Shown here: piece after piece, positions 27,245 to 52,145 of the stretch | Position numbering within the stretch: the stretch's first letter is position 1 | Layout of the letters: every line of letters starts with the position of its first letter | Source of the DNA: an uncultured Thermoplasmata archaeon | Lineage (GTDB): Archaea > Thermoplasmatota > Thermoplasmata > UBA10834 | Direction: 5' to 3' | Assembly: GCA_963719945.1 (NCBI GenBank) | Contig: CAVRDX010000001.1 | Span: 384,001 to 448,000, forward strand | DNA length: 64,000 nucleotides | The notes under the pieces: generated by a model | The model's database searches: none | What the model was told of the DNA's origin: nothing | The model's input: only the letters and a program-made list of their open reading frames with translations | Translations under genes and position numbers: made by a program

Positions 27245-29414
27245 ATGCGGAGGGACTTTCCAGTTGTGGCATCACTGGCCTTGCTACTGCTCCTTGTACC
27301 GGGAATGATTCTTCCGCATCCATCTCCTCCGAGCGCCGTGAGAGTGCATCCGTCGCTCTCCGTTGATGGTCCCATCGTGATCATTTCTGAATTCTATCCA
27401 TGCGGAGTCGATTACGATGAGTACATCGTGCTATGGAACGGTGGTTCGGACGAGGTCGTACTCACGGATTGGACCATCTCAGATGGCGAAGGCGTGTTGC
27501 TGTTCACAACGCCCATCCATATTCTCCCAGGCGATGAAGTCCACATATCCTCGAATGATGATTCATTCGTCGACGCATTTGGAGTCCCTCCTGAGGTTAC
27601 CGTGCAAGGATGGAATACGAACGAATCTGGTCACAGCCTCAGGTTCGTTCAGATTGGCAGACATCGGAGACTCCATTGTCCTCCAATCCCCAGATGGTCG
27701 AGTCGTCGATTCCGCGTGCTATGGAGATTCCGGTGTTCCGGATGGCTGGTTCGGGAGTCCGATGCCTGCCCTCAGACAAGGCGAGGTCGCAAAGCGAGTC
27801 CTGATGGACGGCATCCCTATCGATACTGATGTCTCTACCGATTGGATGCCTTTCAGGGAATACAGGTATGGCTATACCGAGCACACCGCAATCGTGGATG
27901 AGATCCCGGCTGGGGGAATAACGGCATTCGCCAGCCCTGATTGCTCCCTCGAAGTCGTCTTAGACGCGGTCCGGTCAGCATCGGCTTCTGTCCGTATATG
28001 CGCATATGAATTGTATTCGGTCCCATTCTGCGAGACTCTGGCCATCGTCAGCAGGTCTGGAGTGGATGTCTCGGTGCTGGTGGATATTGACCCTGCCGGG
28101 GGTATTTGCCAGATGGAGATCGACTGCCTTTCATTCCTCTCCAACTCTGGTTGCCTGGTCAATGGCATCCATGGCAACCTGGACGATGACATCGTGAGGC
28201 ATATGGGCCCGTTGCATCCAAAGTATATGGTGGTCGATGAGACCAGCATCTTGGTCATGTCCGAGAACTTCGTCCCTGATGGCATTCCTGAGGACCAAGT
28301 TCATGGGAATAGGGGATGGGGTGTCTGGGTCGAGAGCGAGAAGTTAGCTGGATTCCTAACCCATGTGTTCGATGAAGATGCTCGGCAATCCCGTGACGAT
28401 GTGATTGCTTGGACTAGCACCGAATGGTTCGATGTCGACGTAGGATCATTCGAGCAGTCCATGCCAATATACCTCTCAGGTGCCCTCCGACCACATCGTT
28501 CGACAGAGGCGTGCACCGTCCGGCTCCATGTCTCGCCGGATGCGTCGATTCAGAGCCCGTTCCTAACACCATTCCTCGAATCGTCCGGTAATATCATGTT
28601 CGAACAGTTCCAGTCGGATATCTACTGGAACACTAGATGGTCAAGCGAGGCGACCACGAACCCGCTTTTCACCTCCATAATCGATGCTTTGCGAAACGGC
28701 GGACAATCCAGAGGCATACTGGATTCGTCCTGGTTCAACCTGGATCGCAATAATGCTACGGTCTCCTATCTCTCTTCCATAGCTGTATCTGAGGGTCTGG
28801 ACGGTTCGTTCATTCTGATGGATGAACGAAGCCCCATCACAATCCTCCACAACAAAGGTCTCATCTTGGACGACCGAACGGTCGTGATCTCGAGCAACAA
28901 CTGGGTCTATTCGTCGTTCGCTCGGAACCGTGAGCTCGCCGCAATGGTGGATAGTGAAGAGCTGGCAGGCTATTTCACAGATGCCTTCCACATGGATTGG
29001 TTCCCTGATGATGTCCCTCCGATCGCCATCGCTGGTCAGGACATCAATGCCAGGGTGGGCGATGTTGTGCCATTGGATGCCGGCAAATCAAGTGATGACA
29101 GGGCGATTGCCCAGATATGGTGGGACTTCGATGGGGACGGATCGGCTGATTCGTACGGTCCGCGGATAGATTATGCCGTCACGGCTTCGGGGAAGCATCT
29201 TGTGACGGTCCATGTCGAGGATACATGGGGTAACGACGCAAGCGATACGCTGGTCCTGCTCGTTTCAGGATATGAGGACGGCCCTGCAATCCCTATCACG
29301 ACCGTCTACGCACGCCCTCCGACCTGGATACTGCCGCTCGCTCTGATACCTGTAATCTTGGTTCTCAGGCGACTGTCCGTTCGCAAACTTAATCTCGGAA
29401 AAGGCGGTTCATGA
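27245..29414 (+). pseudogene. Secreted lamin-tail + phospholipase D (2x HKD) + PKD protein with C-terminal anchor; +1 frameshift near 27620
   Basis: The signal peptide and LTD start (ISEFYP...EYIVLWN) are in one frame. The LTD end, LHPKYMVVD, LHNKGLILD, the PKD domain (WDFDGDG) and the TM helix are in the +1 frame. An ACGA tandem duplication lies at 27617-27624. Confidence 0.8.
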
Positions 29415-29430
29415 GATTTGACGATTACAA

Positions 29431-29874
29431 ATGCTCGTTGTCAGAAACTTCTCACCCACGGATATCCCTGTCATCACCAAGGTCGTGAAGGATTCATTGG
29501 GGGAGACATACCCATCCTCTCTCTATCTGACCATACACAACCTCTGGCCCGAAGGCTTCCAGGTAGCCCTTAGTGATGGCAGAATCGTCGCATTCGTCGC
29601 GGCAGTGGTGTCGAGTCCTAAAGTGGCCCGAGTCTTGATGCTAGCGGTGAGACCAGAATGCCGCGGACAATTCATCGGGTCGACCCTGATGGATGAGCTC
29701 TATCGCCAATGTATCGGAAAGGGATTGGATTCCATAGTGCTCGAAGTCAGGATGAGCAATACCCGTGCAAGGGCCTTCTACGAGAAGCTCGGCTTCAAGG
29801 TATTCGACGAAATCAAAAAGTTCTACACGAACGGGGAGGCCGCCTTCAAGATGATGAAGGTGCTCCAGAGCTGA
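29431..29874 (+). CDS. GNAT N-acetyltransferase, RimI/Ard1-like
   Basis: LAVRPECRGQFIG, LEVRMSN, FYEKLGF, FYTNGEAA. Confidence 0.9.
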   Translation: MLVVRNFSPTDIPVITKVVKDSLGETYPSSLYLTIHNLWPEGFQVALSDGRIVAFVAAVVSSPKVARVLMLAVRPECRGQFIGSTLMDELYRQCIGKGLDSIVLEVRMSNTRARAFYEKLGFKVFDEIKKFYTNGEAAFKMMKVLQS

Positions 29875-29889
29875 TCATTGGATTGCTTT

Positions 29890-31425
29890 TCAACGATATC
29901 CCTGTTTGTCATCGTGGACATGCTGGTTCCAGTAATGGTATGGTGATGAATCCCTCTCGGATCCGCTCATGTCCTTGGCCACTCCGCCGAGGAAGCTCCC
30001 GTACTTCTCCTTGATCTGCTCTTCAACCGGACGGGCGCGTTTAAGGGCCTCCTTAATGTGTTTCGCCTCAATGAGTGTGGCTCCTTCTACTATCGCCACA
30101 TCGCCAGCAGCTCGGATCAACCCACCAAGTTCCCTTAGCCTCAATGTCAGAGCTTTGTCTTTGTTGTCCATCAGCCTGGCCCTCTTGCGGGCCTCGTCGA
30201 TTATCATCTGGATTGCTTCCCTGGTCGCGTGTGGTATCTTGCCATCCATGACGATCTCCTGGGCCACGAACTGCGCGAGCTTCATGCAGTTCTCGTTCGT
30301 ATCGGGCATTGTGGTATCCACGAGGACCTCGTATCCGCCGCCATTCACTCTCGACCTCAATGGCGACATTATCTGCGGGAGGTCCTGTATGTTGCACGCT
30401 CCGACGAATATGAAATCACAGGGTACGCTATCGACTCTGACGCTTGCGCCTGCGCTCTGAGGGTTTCTGCCGGCGATGGGGAATCTCTTCTCTTGCATGG
30501 CTGTCAGTATGAATCTCTGAAGATGGCCCAGATGAGGCAATTCGTCTACGAAAAGCACTCCCTGATGGGCATTGTGTATGTCACCCGCGACGACTCTGTC
30601 GTAGGGTTGTGTCCCTAGCTGTGGATGTCCTCCGTACGGGTCGTGCCGAACATCTCCAAGTAGTTCTGTCTCGCTTGCGCCTGTTGCTAGGACGAACGGA
30701 TTCCTCCCAATGGGCACTATGACCTTTCTGGGGCTCTCCTTCTCCAACTCCCTCCGTTTCTCGAGGGCTGGCTGGTCGAGAACCTTGATCATATCGCCTG
30801 AACGTTCAAACACTACCACCTCTTCCTTTCCGAACCTCTTCCTGGTGGTAGTGACCCTGTCTCTCCCAGCCATCTGACCCATAGTGACTTCCATTAGCCC
30901 GCCTAGTATGTCCCCGAACGGGTTGTTCGATGTGGAACGTATCTGTTGTGCCACCTTCGCTCGCGCGCATTTGGGGCAGAAACTCTCCTTCGGGGAGGAA
31001 TAGGTCCCACAGCTGGTGCATCTGTATCCAAGTCTCTCAGCAACGTTCACAGGTGCTTCCTTGGGGTCGATGTACTCCCCCTCTGCGTAACCCTTGGATT
31101 CCAGCTCCTTCTCGACCTCATTCGAGTTCCTGACCTCGACCAGGGGTCGCTCTGGATTCTCTGGGTTATGGACCACCCTGATCTCTTCTGTCGGTCTCTT
31201 CAGGTGGAGCGCCAGAGCCTGTGCTATCATCGATTTACCAGTGCCTGGCGGGCCCACGAGCAGAAGATGCCTCATCTGTGAGGCGGCTATCCTCGCAAGT
31301 CGGACGGCCTCCTCTTGTCCGATGACTCTGTCGAGAGGGTCAGAGGCTATCCTGATGTCCTTTGAAGTCTCTATCTCGTCCAACGACTTGAGGACCTTTT
31401 GTCCACCGGAAGCCTCTTCGGTCAT
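29890..31425 (-). CDS. Lon-like (LonB-type) AAA+ ATPase lacking protease domain and membrane anchor
   Basis: DRVIGQEEA, GPPGTGKS, LLGDVRHDPYG, AHQGVLFVDE, PLRSRV, LTLRLRELGGLIRAAGD. It has no Ser-Lys protease domain. Confidence 0.88.
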   Translation of the reverse strand: MTEEASGGQKVLKSLDEIETSKDIRIASDPLDRVIGQEEAVRLARIAASQMRHLLLVGPPGTGKSMIAQALALHLKRPTEEIRVVHNPENPERPLVEVRNSNEVEKELESKGYAEGEYIDPKEAPVNVAERLGYRCTSCGTYSSPKESFCPKCARAKVAQQIRSTSNNPFGDILGGLMEVTMGQMAGRDRVTTTRKRFGKEEVVVFERSGDMIKVLDQPALEKRRELEKESPRKVIVPIGRNPFVLATGASETELLGDVRHDPYGGHPQLGTQPYDRVVAGDIHNAHQGVLFVDELPHLGHLQRFILTAMQEKRFPIAGRNPQSAGASVRVDSVPCDFIFVGACNIQDLPQIMSPLRSRVNGGGYEVLVDTTMPDTNENCMKLAQFVAQEIVMDGKIPHATREAIQMIIDEARKRARLMDNKDKALTLRLRELGGLIRAAGDVAIVEGATLIEAKHIKEALKRARPVEEQIKEKYGSFLGGVAKDMSGSERDSSPYHYWNQHVHDDKQGYR

Positions 31426-31441
31426 GTGAAGTTCCCGCGTC

Positions 31442-32734
31442 CTAGCTCAGATCCTCCTTCGTGAGGATCTCCACATTCGTGGGGAGCTTGGCTACGTTTC
31501 CTACCTTGACACCGACTACGGATGAAATATTCTTTTCCACGGCCAAGTCCAGAACTCGCTGGGTTATTATGCCATCGAGCACCACTGCGCGCACGCCCGT
31601 ACCGGATTCCTTGAGCGTCTCAGCGAGCTTGCTCACATGCACTTCTTTCATCACATTGCCGTTCTCGTTGAGCAGCTTCGCCTTCGAGCTGTTGTTCAGC
31701 TCCGAGAGCACGTCCTTGAATCTGAGCTGTTCGGGGGACAACCTCGGGGTCGACGGCTGTGGCTGCGGCCGGTCCTCGTGTCTCGGTTGACGTGATTCTC
31801 TCGGCTCTCGCCTCCGGTCACGGTCGTCATCCCTTCTTCCGCGGTCTCCACGGCCTTCCTCGGACCTGCCCTGTTTTTCACCATTTCTGCCCGAAGAAGC
31901 TCCAAGATTGACCATTTCTGCAAACTGGTCGGCCGGAACCTTGTTCCTCAGGCACTTGACCATCTGCTTCTGTGTCAACTCCTCGACTTCCTGTCCGTTC
32001 GGAGCACGTGCGACGAAGTCTATTTCGGCAACTTCTAGCAACTCTCTTATGATGAGCTCTCCACCTCTGTCTCCATCGACAAAGGCTGTCACGACCTTCT
32101 CTTTTGCCAGAGCTATGATCGATTGGGGGACATTCGTCCCTTCGACTGCTATCGCGTTCTTGATGCCGTACTTGAGCAGGTTCAGAACATCTGACCTGCC
32201 CTCCACGACTATGATGGCGTCGGAATCATCGATGTTGGGCCCTGCGGGGAGTCTCTCCTTTCCATAGTGCTGCACCTCTTCCATCTGGAATGACTGGCGC
32301 ACCGAATCCGTGAGGTCTCCTCCGCTCGTCTTCGAGGTCTTCATGAGCTCGTTGAGCAGCACCTTGGCCCTCTCGATGATCTTGTTCCTCTTCGATATCC
32401 TTACATCCTCGATCTTGTCGATGGATATCCTGGCCTTGCAGGGTCCGACCCTGTCGATGGTCTCAAGGGCTGATGCAAGTATTGCGGTCTCGACCTGGTC
32501 GAGACTCGAAGGTACATAAACGATGCCTTCGGACTTGCCCTTGTTCGAGCTTACCTCGACCTCTATCCTTCCTATCCTGCCGCTCTTCTGCAGGTCTCTG
32601 AGGTCGAGTTCGTCGCCCAGCAGTCCTTCCGTCTGGCCGAAAATAGCGCCCACAATGTCGGGTTTTTCCACGATTCCATCTGTCGAGAGTTTCGCTTGAA
32701 TCAGATATTTGGTTGTACTTGGATCTATGTCCAT
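31442..32734 (-). CDS. dnaG: Archaeal DnaG (bacterial-type primase homolog, exosome-associated)
   Basis: DIVGAIFGQTEGLLG, LQKSGRIGRI, TOPRIM VEGRSDV...DGDRGG, DGIITQR. Confidence 0.96.
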   Translation of the reverse strand: MDIDPSTTKYLIQAKLSTDGIVEKPDIVGAIFGQTEGLLGDELDLRDLQKSGRIGRIEVEVSSNKGKSEGIVYVPSSLDQVETAILASALETIDRVGPCKARISIDKIEDVRISKRNKIIERAKVLLNELMKTSKTSGGDLTDSVRQSFQMEEVQHYGKERLPAGPNIDDSDAIIVVEGRSDVLNLLKYGIKNAIAVEGTNVPQSIIALAKEKVVTAFVDGDRGGELIIRELLEVAEIDFVARAPNGQEVEELTQKQMVKCLRNKVPADQFAEMVNLGASSGRNGEKQGRSEEGRGDRGRRDDDRDRRREPRESRQPRHEDRPQPQPSTPRLSPEQLRFKDVLSELNNSSKAKLLNENGNVMKEVHVSKLAETLKESGTGVRAVVLDGIITQRVLDLAVEKNISSVVGVKVGNVAKLPTNVEILTKEDLS

Positions 32735-32755
32735 GTATGTGCACCCCTAAGGTGT

Positions 32756-32947
32756 CGAAAAACAGCTCAGGTTCCCGCCACGTCTATCATTCGCTGTCGA
32801 GCATCCCTTTGTCCAGGGGTCGCAGCAGGCTTGACAAACATCTGGCTACTGTGAACCCTATGCCTTTTAGCCAGGCGTATGAGCGTCACTGTGAGATGTG
32901 TTTGGTTAAGCGTGATGATGTCAAACGGGTTTGAACGCTGTTCTTCG
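32756..32947 (-). ncRNA. Candidate structured 5' leader or ncRNA upstream of dnaG
   Basis: An 11-bp terminal inverted repeat with one G-U pair encloses internal hairpins. A TATA-like element lies about 25 nt upstream. Confidence 0.45.
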
Positions 32948-33036
32948 TAACTATTAACGCTCTCTTTGATAAATACTTTTCCTCACAATCTATAAAAGTC
33001 TGCGTCGACCGACTGGCTATATGCTCCAGGACCAGG

Positions 33037-33246
33037 CTAGCCGCCTGAAACGACGGATATCAACTTTATCTCGTCACCATCCAAGAGTGGTTCGTCGATC
33101 GGGACGGGGTCCGTTCCTCTGACTGCTATCCACGAATCGGGCAACAGCCCGAGCTTCCTTATGAGCGCCTCCACATCGATCCCCTCCTCAAGCTCGACCG
33201 TTTTTGTCTCTCTTCTGCTCGGCAGGAGATGTACCGTCACCTTCAT
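33037..33246 (-). CDS. Ubiquitin-like MoaD/ThiS/SAMP family protein
   Basis: 69-aa beta-grasp protein ending DGDEIKLISVVSGG. Confidence 0.9.
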   Translation of the reverse strand: MKVTVHLLPSRRETKTVELEEGIDVEALIRKLGLLPDSWIAVRGTDPVPIDEPLLDGDEIKLISVVSGG

Positions 33247-49504: not shown

Positions 49505-51427
49505 TCACTTCAGTCTGATGGTCTCCAGGTTCATCGGGGCGCGGGTCTCGATCCCGAACTTCTTGTAGAGCGTACTGGCGAGTTCAGAACACTTGTATTC
49601 CTCGCCATGGCCGATGATGATCCTCTCAGGACGCGGTTCGAGCGTGCTGACATAGTTCACCAGTTGCCTCCTGTCGGAGTGGCCAGAGAAACCATCCACT
49701 GTCTCGGTATCCATCTTCATGTGGAGGGTCAGCTGTTTTCCTTTGTCGTTGAGATTGATGTCTGTCCAACCCTTCTGGATCTTACGACCCATGGTCCCCT
49801 CTCCTTGGAAACCGACGAAGACCAGGGTATTCAGTGGGTTGTCACACCATGACTTGAAGTATTCCATGACCGGTCCGCCGTTCATCATTCCGCTCGTGGC
49901 GAGTACGATGCATGCCTCCGTGTCGTGGCATATGCGTTCTCTCATGTCTGGGCTGTCCACCCTCTTGAAGACATCAGACAGGAACGGGTTCTCACCCATC
50001 TGGAATATCTGCGTCCTCAATTGGCTGTTGAGATATTCTGGATATGCAGTGTGTATTGCAGTTGCCTCGAATATCATGCCATCGAGGTAGATCGGCACCT
50101 TGGGGACCTGGTGGTTCCTCATGAGATCTTCAAGGACGAGCATGACCTCCTGAGACCTCCCTACAGCAAACACTGGTGTCAGGACCTTACCGCCTCTTGA
50201 CAGGGCTCTGCGGATGATCTCCTTCAGCTGGCCTGAAGCATCCTGACGGCTAGGCTGCATGTCGTGATAGCCACCATATGTCGATTCCATCACGAGCGTC
50301 TCCAGTCTTGGGAATTTGTTCACAGATGCGTTGAACAACCAGGATTTCTCGAATTTGATGTCGCCCGTGAATGCTATGTTGTAGAGTCCATCTCCTATGT
50401 GGAAGTGCGCGATGGATGAACCAAGGATATGTCCCGCGTTCTGAAGGGTGAGTCTGACATCGGGCGATATGTCCGTTGTCTCTCCATACTTCAAAGGTAT
50501 AGTGTGCATGACGACGTCGCGTATATGGGATGAATCGTAGGGTGCTTTCTTGCCCTCGCCGACCGCGACTTTTATGAAATCAAGTTGCAGGAGAGACATG
50601 AGGTCCCTTGTTGGAGGAGTGCAATATACTGGTCCATCATAGCCATACTTGAATAGTACTGGCAGAAGCCCTGAGTGGTCGAGGTGCGCATGCGTGATGA
50701 TAACCCCGTCGATGGACTCGAGTGGCATCAGTTCCGGAGCGCTAAGATAGGGCGTCGATCCGTTTTCGTCGGCTGATACCGCGACACCGCAGTCTATCAG
50801 TACCTTGCTCTCGCGGGTCATTAGCAGGCTCGCGCTCCGGCCGACTTCACGGAAACCTCCCAATGCGGTCAGCCTCAGCCAGGTCTCGTCGTTCATCCGT
50901 TGCCTCATCAGCCTCCGGCCGACCTTCCTTAGGAACTCCTTTCGTTCCTCCTGGACCTTCCGAAGGTAGTTCCTGATGTCGCTGACAGTCTTGGACGGGA
51001 TCGGAGGTGCTCTCACGACCTTGGCGGCCCATCCGATCTCCTTCTTGATCTCGTTCAGGATGGCCCCGTGCTTGCCTATGACCAGGCCAGGCGATATTGC
51101 TTCGATGGTGACCTCGCCCGTGTCGTCTTCGAAGTATATGTTCGTGATCTTGGCCTCTTCAGGTATGATCTTGCGGATCTTCTCCTCTGCGCTCTCGATA
51201 TCTGCGAGTGTGCTGGGATCTGGCCGTATGGCCACGCGTCTCCGCAATGTCTGGGCCAGCAGTCGAACAAGGTCATTATTGTTGGAGAACTCGTCGAGGT
51301 TCTTTGTGTAGATGACTATGACTGGTCCTTCGAAATCTATGTCTGTCACTTCAATATGCGAGGGTATGGTCTTCTTGACCGCTTCTCTCGCATCTTCCAG
51401 AATCTTCTCTATGCCCATCTGGTTCAC
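49505..51427 (-). CDS. fttA: KH-domain beta-CASP ribonuclease aCPSF1 (FttA, transcription termination factor)
   Basis: KH domains (PGLVIGK), GGFREVGRS, HAHLDH, AGHILGS, FAVGRSQE, FSGHSD. Confidence 0.96.
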   Translation of the reverse strand: MNQMGIEKILEDAREAVKKTIPSHIEVTDIDFEGPVIVIYTKNLDEFSNNNDLVRLLAQTLRRRVAIRPDPSTLADIESAEEKIRKIIPEEAKITNIYFEDDTGEVTIEAISPGLVIGKHGAILNEIKKEIGWAAKVVRAPPIPSKTVSDIRNYLRKVQEERKEFLRKVGRRLMRQRMNDETWLRLTALGGFREVGRSASLLMTRESKVLIDCGVAVSADENGSTPYLSAPELMPLESIDGVIITHAHLDHSGLLPVLFKYGYDGPVYCTPPTRDLMSLLQLDFIKVAVGEGKKAPYDSSHIRDVVMHTIPLKYGETTDISPDVRLTLQNAGHILGSSIAHFHIGDGLYNIAFTGDIKFEKSWLFNASVNKFPRLETLVMESTYGGYHDMQPSRQDASGQLKEIIRRALSRGGKVLTPVFAVGRSQEVMLVLEDLMRNHQVPKVPIYLDGMIFEATAIHTAYPEYLNSQLRTQIFQMGENPFLSDVFKRVDSPDMRERICHDTEACIVLATSGMMNGGPVMEYFKSWCDNPLNTLVFVGFQGEGTMGRKIQKGWTDINLNDKGKQLTLHMKMDTETVDGFSGHSDRRQLVNYVSTLEPRPERIIIGHGEEYKCSELASTLYKKFGIETRAPMNLETIRLK

Positions 51428-51503
51428 TCAACTTAATCGAACAAGCATCGTTCGTTTTGTGGGCGGCAACATAGCCACTCAAATCGCATATTTGACCAGA
51501 GTC

Positions 51504-52145
51504 TCAGGGGAGCAGCTTCATCTTGGCTTGCCTCTTCTGAATCTCTTTCTCGTCGAGGGGTGTGAACGCCTCTTTGGTAATGATTGCGACAGTCATTCCA
51601 TCGCCCGATGCTGAGTCACGCTTCATTGCAGCGTGCAATGACCTTATCGCGAGGTCTGCGCCATCGTTGACCGTCAATCCTTTCTCGTAATGGTCTTCCA
51701 GTACACCATAGACATATGGTGAGCCAGATCCCGTGGTAACATATGTGTCGGGGATGGCTCCACCTACCATGTCAAGCGCGTAGACATGGTTGCCTTCCCT
51801 GTCGACCCCTCCCAGGATAAGTCCGACCCAGTAGGGATAGAACCGGCTACCCGCCAAAATGTTCGACATGAGGGTGGCTCCGGATCTCACAGTCATCTGC
51901 TGTCCTCTCTTGAGTTTATAAAGCTCAACCTCGGCGGTTATGTATCTTGCAAGAGTCTGTGCATCTCCGACCACACCCGCGACTGCAAGTCCCATGTTAT
52001 CGTCGATCTTGAATAGCTTCTGAGTGGTCTTGTGAGCGATGAGTGTCCCCATTGTGGCCCTCATCTCCGTAGCCATCACTACACCATCCTTGCATACCAG
52101 GCCTATCGTGGTCGTGCCCTTCTTGATATCTTCGCTGCTCGTCAT
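51504..52145 (-). CDS. psmB: Proteasome beta subunit
   Basis: Propeptide then G/TTT, GDAQ, GSGS, RDSASG. Confidence 0.97.
   Translation of the reverse strand: MTSSEDIKKGTTTIGLVCKDGVVMATEMRATMGTLIAHKTTQKLFKIDDNMGLAVAGVVGDAQTLARYITAEVELYKLKRGQQMTVRSGATLMSNILAGSRFYPYWVGLILGGVDREGNHVYALDMVGGAIPDTYVTTGSGSPYVYGVLEDHYEKGLTVNDGADLAIRSLHAAMKRDSASGDGMTVAIITKEAFTPLDEKEIQKRQAKMKLLP

Follow-up and report, generated by a model that had tools for sequence, protein, structure and literature searches.

A LonB-like ATPase that lacks a protease domain

We analyzed a 64,000-nucleotide stretch of DNA from an uncultured archaeon of the class Thermoplasmata (assembly GCA_963719945.1, contig CAVRDX010000001.1, positions 384,001 to 448,000; this whole stretch is referred to here as the window). 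We noted that it encodes a soluble AAA+ ATPase that is related to the archaeal membrane protease LonB but lacks a protease domain, and that this gene lies directly downstream of dnaG. An original prediction, made from the DNA sequence, had proposed that this ATPase exchanged its own protease for the 20S proteasome, to which it would dock through a C-terminal tail of the HbYX (hydrophobic residue-tyrosine-any residue) type. The ATPase, its parts and the neighboring genes are listed in Table 1.

Table 1. Position and supporting evidence of the genes and protein segments considered in this study (window coordinates)
Feature	Position	Strand	Evidence or remark
Protease-less soluble LonB-like AAA+ ATPase, 511 aa	29890..31425	-	TIGR00764 partial match, motifs, fold match
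Insertion domain of the ATPase (residues 86-245), replacing the LonB membrane anchor	30691..31170	-	Alignment with LonB
Zinc ribbon within the insertion domain (residues 136-153)	30967-31020	-	CX2CX10CX2C
C-terminal tail of the ATPase past the AAA lid (~residues 465-511), ending G-Y-R	29890..30030	-	Orthologue tail comparison
Archaeal DnaG (Toprim primase/exosome subunit)	31442..32734	-	NF003108, 545 bits
Low-complexity insert of DnaG (residues ~275-335)	~31730-31912	-	
SAMP2/ThiS-type beta-grasp protein, 69 aa, ending SGG	33037..33246	-	Pfam SAMP2 31.6 bits, ThiS 28.6 bits
RimI-type GNAT acetyltransferase, convergent with the ATPase gene	29431..29874	+	TIGR01575, 86.5 bits
665-aa protein with a hydrophobic C-terminus	27417-29414	+	Two weak PLD/NucT-like nuclease matches
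psmB	51504..52145	-	TIGR03634, 252 bits; ~20 kb from the ATPase gene
psmB-aCPSF1 gene pair	49505-52145	-	aCPSF1: TIGR03675, 965 bits

Translation of the open reading frame (ORF) revealed intact LonB-type AAA+ motifs: Walker A (GPPGTGKS, position 58), the pore loop (HDPYG, position 261), Walker B (VLFVDE, position 290), sensor 1 (ACN, position 343), PLRSR (position 355) and LTLRLR (position 426). The pore loop (H261-D262-P263-Y264-G265) was invariant in an alignment of 57 sequences of the ATPase family. The NCBIfam LonB model TIGR00764 was matched at profile positions 3 to 90 and 171 to 402, out of 608, and the score of 352.3 bits fell below the equivalog cut-off of 516.6 bits. Pfam domain analysis gave weak matches to the LonB lid and to zinc ribbons and a secondary match to Mg-chelatase/ComM, and it found no Lon_C (Ser-Lys protease) domain. 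When the protein was aligned with the 662-aa LonB encoded by the same genome, the ORF ended about 45 residues past the lid, at the point where the protease domain of LonB starts. In the same alignment, the insert bearing the zinc ribbon was placed opposite both LonB transmembrane helices; the peak 19-residue Kyte-Doolittle mean of the ATPase was 1.2, against 2.36 and 2.29 for the segments of LonB. These results bear out three elements of the original prediction, namely, the 511-aa ATPase with its AAA+ motifs, the missing protease domain, and the zinc ribbon at the site of the LonB membrane hairpin.

An AlphaFold2 model, built from the alignment of 57 sequences, had a mean predicted local distance difference test score (pLDDT) of 84. 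The top matches to this model in the PDB were the structures of Thermococcus onnurineus LonB (3k1j and 4zpx; E 1e-36, 36% identity), followed by MtaLonC (E ~1e-13) and then by ComM, RuvB and MCM (E ~1e-7). The best-scoring families were LonB, Mg-chelatase and RuvB, and PAN models reached just 15 to 18 bits, which places the ATPase outside the classical AAA clade. As read from its sequence, the protein retains every element predicted for an ATP-driven hexameric protein translocase (Walker A and B, sensors 1 and 2, the Arg finger and the pore loop). By analogy with LonB, it would be expected to form a ring.

The ATPase belongs to an ancient paralogue family of LonB

Homologues of about 500 to 515 residues number in the thousands. 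In a tree that included LonB sequences, the protease-less proteins fell on one side of a well-supported branch (Shimodaira-Hasegawa-like approximate likelihood ratio test [SH-aLRT], 98). The ATPase is not a truncation; it belongs to an ancient family that is paralogous to archaeal LonB and separate from it. Within Thermoplasmatota, members are found in Methanomassiliicoccales, Methanomethylophilaceae, Thermoplasmataceae and many uncultured lineages, and more distant members occur in Korarchaeota, Thorarchaeota and Anstonellales. The clusters of the ATPase in the ESM Atlas are 100% archaeal, mostly Thermoplasmatota and Microcaldota, and carry the automatic name "LonB like ATP-ase no protease domain" (score 0.99), so the loss of the protease domain is already recorded in annotation.

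Using 41 genomes sampled from the class, we compared the distribution of the family with that of other proteolytic machinery. The paralogue was present in 37, full-length LonB in 41 and PAN in 39, and PAN, Cdc48 and full LonB were combined in 39 of the 41. The genomes without the paralogue (G015, G027, G038 [family f15] and G036 [f19]) are 90 to 99% complete and all encode LonB, PAN and the 20S proteasome; with four of 41 genomes lacking it, the gene is dispensable in some lineages. The genome that contains the window encodes PAN, two Cdc48 proteins and one full LonB, whose gene is unlinked to that of the ATPase. No stand-alone Lon protease domain that could serve as a separate partner was found in this genome (87% complete), where the sole Lon_C domain is that of LonB (665 aa in this search); on this point the original prediction stood. 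Its rationale that the ATPase takes the place of a missing PAN had to be abandoned. Since PAN is present here and in most relatives, the ATPase is not a PAN substitute. A Thermoplasma sp. genome has the paralogue (locus L075, tail ending in ...DDRSYE) and lacks PAN.

A LonB paralogue might act as a helper of the membrane-bound LonB, either by forming mixed rings with it or by handing substrates over to its protease chamber. LonB is present in every sampled genome and the two AAA+ modules are locally 47 to 53% identical, which speaks for such a role. However, the two families are split by the branch described above, their genes are unlinked, the paralogue has no membrane anchor and there is no known receptor on LonB for a C-terminal docking tail. 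We regard a helper role as highly improbable.

The C-terminal tail carries a conserved motif of the HbYX type

The C-terminus of the ATPase reads ...HVHDDKQGYR and is followed by a TGA stop codon. Among close homologues, 119 of 120 end in G-Y-X, the lone exception being a 481-aa fragment. Across 79 complete orthologues from genomes of different Thermoplasmatota species (55 to 97% identity), the penultimate (-2) residue was Tyr or Phe in 78. The endings were GY-x (42 orthologues), MF-x (22), SY-x or TY-x (11) and MY-x (3), with RYIG as the exception; position -3 is therefore Gly in 42, Met in 25 (MF-x plus MY-x) and Ser or Thr in 11. The last residue is free, with 11 residue types across the 78 motif-bearing tails. 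Tail length varies through indels upstream, and the aromatic residue is nevertheless fixed at -2. Conservation around a -2 aromatic with a free last residue is as expected if the aromatic side chain and the free carboxylate are read together. The penultimate Tyr singled out in the original prediction is thus conserved, in the wider sense of Tyr or Phe.

Conservation extends beyond the final three residues to an S[QE][KR]..SPY.YWN block (SQK..YY.WN) and to acidic residues. The original prediction had described the tail as flexible; its ending ...DDKQGYR was confirmed, and disorder was predicted just for residues ~497 to 511 of a tail that is strongly conserved. Some distant members have motif-like ends as well (LYR, SYL and GYR, together with YFA in Korarchaeota and YFF in Thorarchaeota), a few of them with Leu or Tyr at -3. 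One lineage (P0136, P0137 and L128) has lost the tail, and with it both the Walker B Glu and the pore loop HDPYG, a joint loss that we count in favor of the proteasome reading proposed below.

The HbYX motif of archaeal AAA proteins has been defined as a small or hydrophobic residue at -3 and Phe or Tyr at -2 (PMC3493965), and the archaeal proteasomal ATPases that bear it are PAN, Cdc48/VAT and AMA (PMC3493965; PMC4192671). The ends of the ATPase (G-Y-R) and its orthologues have this composition. Judged by its residues, the tail bears a conserved HbYX-type motif, (small or hydrophobic)-(Tyr/Phe)-X, whose place is fixed relative to the C-terminus. In the same genomes, PAN ends in MFA, MYA or MFG and Cdc48 ends in MYR, YYR, GYV, LYR, FYG, LYL or IYG. 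By way of a base rate, 3.6% of the crude ORFs of this genome (56 ORFs) end with an HbYX-type motif, and this set includes PAN, both Cdc48 proteins and the ATPase.

The alpha subunit of the 20S proteasome was present in all 41 sampled genomes. Lys66 of the alpha-ring pocket, the residue that receives the carboxylate, was invariant. A complex prediction for two copies of the archaeon's own 20S alpha subunit with tail residues 455 to 511 gave an ipSAE (interaction prediction score from aligned errors) of 0.01 and was weighed neither for nor against docking.

Two further observations were made on HbYX-type ends. The PAN of this genome (G000:C3:185710-186918) ends in M-F-A, Phe replacing the canonical penultimate Tyr, and the PAN proteins of three related genomes end in MYA, MFA and MFG. 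Separately, a 256-aa ORF (G000:C3:13897-14667) has the HbYX-type end ...LAGYY and could be a PbaA/PbaB-like proteasome factor.

dnaG is the conserved neighbor of the ATPase gene

The dnaG stop codon and the ATPase start are separated by 16 nt. Across 80 genome loci, dnaG was found directly upstream of the ATPase gene and on the same strand in related loci with enough upstream DNA, except L040 and L044; counted over informative loci, it was directly upstream in about 70 of 74. The gap between the two genes ranged from -37 nt (an overlap) to about +140 nt, and overlaps were frequent. A metagenome scan using distant members returned only 11 loci. The dnaG-ATPase order was kept in two further metagenome loci as well, L123 (tail LYR) and L129. 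The dnaG synteny that had been put forward as a test was therefore strongly upheld. Gene order indicates that dnaG and the ATPase gene form a conserved operon, predicted to be cotranscribed across Thermoplasmatota, and this suggests DnaG or its complexes as the main client or adaptor of the ATPase.

The linkage also allows that the ATPase is a dedicated DnaG remodeler without any protease partner, one that would unfold, disassemble or load DnaG or DnaG-containing exosome caps, with the aromatic residue of the tail binding DnaG or regulating the ring. dnaG is the sole universally conserved neighbor and is often translationally coupled to the ATPase gene, the tail has more conserved blocks (SQK..YY.WN and the acidic run) than its final three residues, and distant lineages include members without a nearby dnaG and some without the motif; all of this fits a remodeler. 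Against it, an aromatic fixed at -2 and a free last residue are the hallmark of docking anchored by the carboxylate, of which HbYX proteins are an example, PAN and Cdc48 of the same genomes carry the same motif variants, and the motif is kept in L040 and L044, which have no dnaG upstream. We consider a protease-independent remodeler the main rival reading, possible but on the unlikely side.

Alternatively, the ATPase could be a nucleic acid motor or loader that works with DnaG in replication or repair, comparable to RuvB, MCM or ComM, its zinc ribbon binding DNA or RNA and its tail binding a replisome factor, for example, PCNA. Adjacency to a primase-type gene and the secondary Pfam and fold matches to Mg-chelatase/ComM, RuvB and MCM would suit such a role. 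The closest match by far, however, is LonB, a protein translocase, and the invariant pore loop is of the aromatic type that protein translocases typically have. Many orthologue tails contain a Q-x5-YY pattern that loosely resembles a PCNA-interacting peptide (PIP), but this pattern has no central hydrophobic residue and its Gln is replaced by Glu in the ATPase and close relatives; on both counts, the case for a PIP box in the SQK..YY.WN block was judged weak and set aside. Such a motor appears unlikely.

With respect to DnaG itself, we noted an Arg/Asp/Glu/Pro-rich, low-complexity insert between its Toprim and C-terminal parts. The tblastn matches of DnaG often break at residues ~277 to 320, indicating that the length of this insert varies. 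That the insert, being disordered, might act as an initiation site for an unfoldase is speculation. We also found the dnaG-ATPase pair on two contigs, L087 and L089, filed as "Eggerthellaceae bacterium" and "Methanobacteriaceae archaeon," which probably are mis-binned Methanomethylophilaceae-like contigs.

The insertion domain contains a zinc ribbon

Three parts were recognized in the insertion domain, namely, the zinc ribbon, a disordered loop (residues ~159 to 187) and a small beta-sheet/helix unit. The ribbon is formed by CTSC at position 136 and CPKC at position 150. In the family alignment, C136, C139 and C153 were invariant and C150 was present in at least 90% of rows. The rest of the domain is conserved as well, with VTTTR and EEVVVYER..I.VLD kept. 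Modeled alone, the domain had a pLDDT of 76, and it gave no significant fold match (best Foldseek E, 0.56; best VIA Z, 3.4). A search for longer proteins in which this domain is fused to other sequence found none, which we count as weak evidence.

The original prediction had connected the ribbon with a ubiquitin-like modifier gene clustered with the ATPase gene. The SAMP2/ThiS gene is real at this locus, but its linkage is not conserved: a small ORF ending in ...SGG lies upstream of dnaG in just 7 of 53 loci, those of the same genus and of Methanomassiliicoccaceae, and the expected synteny failed. A role as receptor and unfoldase for SAMP conjugates, in which the ribbon would recognize sampylated substrates as the NZF fingers of Npl4 and TAB2 recognize ubiquitin, would account for the gene upstream here and in Methanomassiliicoccaceae loci. 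It would likewise draw on the resemblance of the ribbon to NZF/RanBP2 fingers, with which it shares the Cys spacing and an aromatic residue two positions ahead of the first Cys, and on local fold matches to a TAB2 NZF-diubiquitin complex and a ZRANB2 finger. These fold matches are not significant (E 1 to 2), however, the CX2CX10CX2C spacing is common among zinc ribbons, the Thr-Phe dipeptide by which NZF fingers bind ubiquitin is out of register and the SAMP neighbor is missing in 46 of the 53 loci. We therefore find a SAMP receptor very unlikely.

Other genes of the region

Besides dnaG, neighbor clustering found no general neighbor of the ATPase gene; the GNAT acetyltransferase and the PLD-like protein recur in subsets of loci. 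In tblastn searches, the GNAT gene adjoined the ATPase gene in most closer relatives (26 loci by neighbor clustering) and was not universal. In about 22 related loci, the GNAT and ATPase genes are accompanied by a homologue of the PLD-like protein. Past dnaG, long antisense ORFs disturbed part of this clustering where loci were GC rich. The proteasome gene psmB is in the window, as stated in the original prediction; at its distance it is unlinked to the ATPase gene. It lies directly upstream of, and on the same strand as, the gene for the beta-CASP ribonuclease aCPSF1, which makes another pair of a proteasome gene and an RNA-processing gene in the window.

Discussion

We propose, tentatively, that the ATPase is an additional proteasomal unfoldase linked to DnaG. 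The sequence evidence makes this quite possible, though still short of probable, with docking on the 20S proteasome suggested by the tail. The LonB paralogue family has shed its membrane anchor and its Ser-Lys protease. In the scheme that we envisage, the ring would unfold proteins and pass them through the face where the protease domain of LonB once hung. With the structure of LonB as a guide, we infer that the tail would leave the ring at this former protease face, which is the exit face at which other AAA+ proteins dock on their protease partners. The tails would enter the pockets between alpha subunits of the 20S ring in the manner of the HbYX tails of PAN and Cdc48, and the ATPase would thereby join the network that proteasomal ATPases form in archaea. 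The zinc-ribbon domain may select clients, and DnaG, or DnaG-containing exosome or nucleic acid complexes, may be the main client or adaptor; RNA- and DNA-processing machinery could thereby be tied to proteolysis. There are precedents for such a tie: in Haloferax, a proteasomal AAA ATPase and a ubiquitin-like protein are connected with a nuclease complex, and RecJ3-Cdc48 operons are found in methanogens (PMC10470531).

Several observations weigh against this proposal. The conserved genomic partner of the ATPase is dnaG and not a proteasome gene. With PAN, two Cdc48 proteins and LonB already present, there is no obvious vacancy for a further ATPase. A strictly hydrophobic -3 residue, as in the original HbYX motif, is lacking, since the residue is Gly here and Gly, Ser or Thr in most members; with such residues at -3, the tail might dock and yet leave the gate closed, or its target might be something else. 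Some divergent members have an intact motor and no motif, ending in DVR (Anstonellales), ETA, YEI or GEN. The sequences compared are kin within one phylum, and the counts of conserved tails consequently overstate the independent support. Finally, among AAA+ proteins Lon falls in the HCLR clade, no member of which is known to dock by HbYX.

The fuller claim is that the Lon-derived ring represents an unrecognized class of 20S activator, the first HCLR protein with HbYX-type docking, and that it delivers DnaG-, exosome- or primase-associated complexes by way of its obligate dnaG operon. We hold this to be doubtful. Its interest lies in the fact that work is still under way to establish which ATPases supply the archaeal 20S proteasome, that PAN is missing from some lineages, and that Cdc48 and AMA joined the list only in 2012. 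A Lon paralogue with a proteasome-docking tail would mean that the HbYX solution also arose, by convergence, outside the classical AAA clade, and it would open a new way into the proteasome. The archaeal exosome and proteasome have long been predicted to be coupled, and delivery by such a ring would put this coupling on a physical footing. The dnaG operon gives a practical way into two questions, namely, what archaeal DnaG does and how RNA degradation is connected, as has been predicted, with that of proteins. In the literature searched, neither the tail motif nor the dnaG operon nor any function of the protease-less LonB family was described, and nothing was found on protease-less Lon, "Lon2"/Ta1081, a Lon-DnaG link or HbYX in connection with LonB. 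The conserved tail motif, the dnaG linkage, the SAMP non-linkage and the coexistence with PAN are new here.

Comparison with known systems

The AAA+ module of the ATPase is colinear with that of archaeal LonB, including the N-terminal segment, NPENPERP, Walker A and B, the HDP-aromatic pore loop, PLRSR, LTLRLR and the lid. Unlike LonB, the ATPase has a zinc-ribbon domain in place of the transmembrane hairpin and a 45-residue conserved tail in place of the Ser-Lys protease domain; it scores below the cut-off of TIGR00764, forms a separate clade and coexists with true LonB. It belongs in the annotation family "LonB like ATPase, no protease domain," a name that records the domain loss alone. ClpX offers a parallel in general design, being a stand-alone HCLR AAA+ unfoldase without a protease of its own that uses a zinc-binding domain for substrates and adaptors and docks on a separate, self-compartmentalized peptidase. 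The zinc domain of ClpX is N-terminal, however, whereas the zinc ribbon of the ATPase is inserted within the AAA+ fold, and ClpX docks by its IGF loops and not by a C-terminal tail, on a ClpP that has no counterpart here.

From PAN, Cdc48 and AMA, the ATPase differs in that it belongs to the Lon (HCLR) branch and not to the classical AAA clade, has neither a coiled-coil/OB nor a double-psi-barrel N-domain, and usually has, across its family, Gly, Ser or Met at -3; binding to the 20S proteasome is a candidate property in its case. It resembles these proteins in that its sequence predicts a ring-shaped ATPase whose pore loop is aromatic, and in having a flexible tail that ends in (small/hydrophobic)-(Tyr/Phe)-X and is conserved across species. 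As with PAN, Cdc48 and AMA, several such ATPases coexist in one cell.

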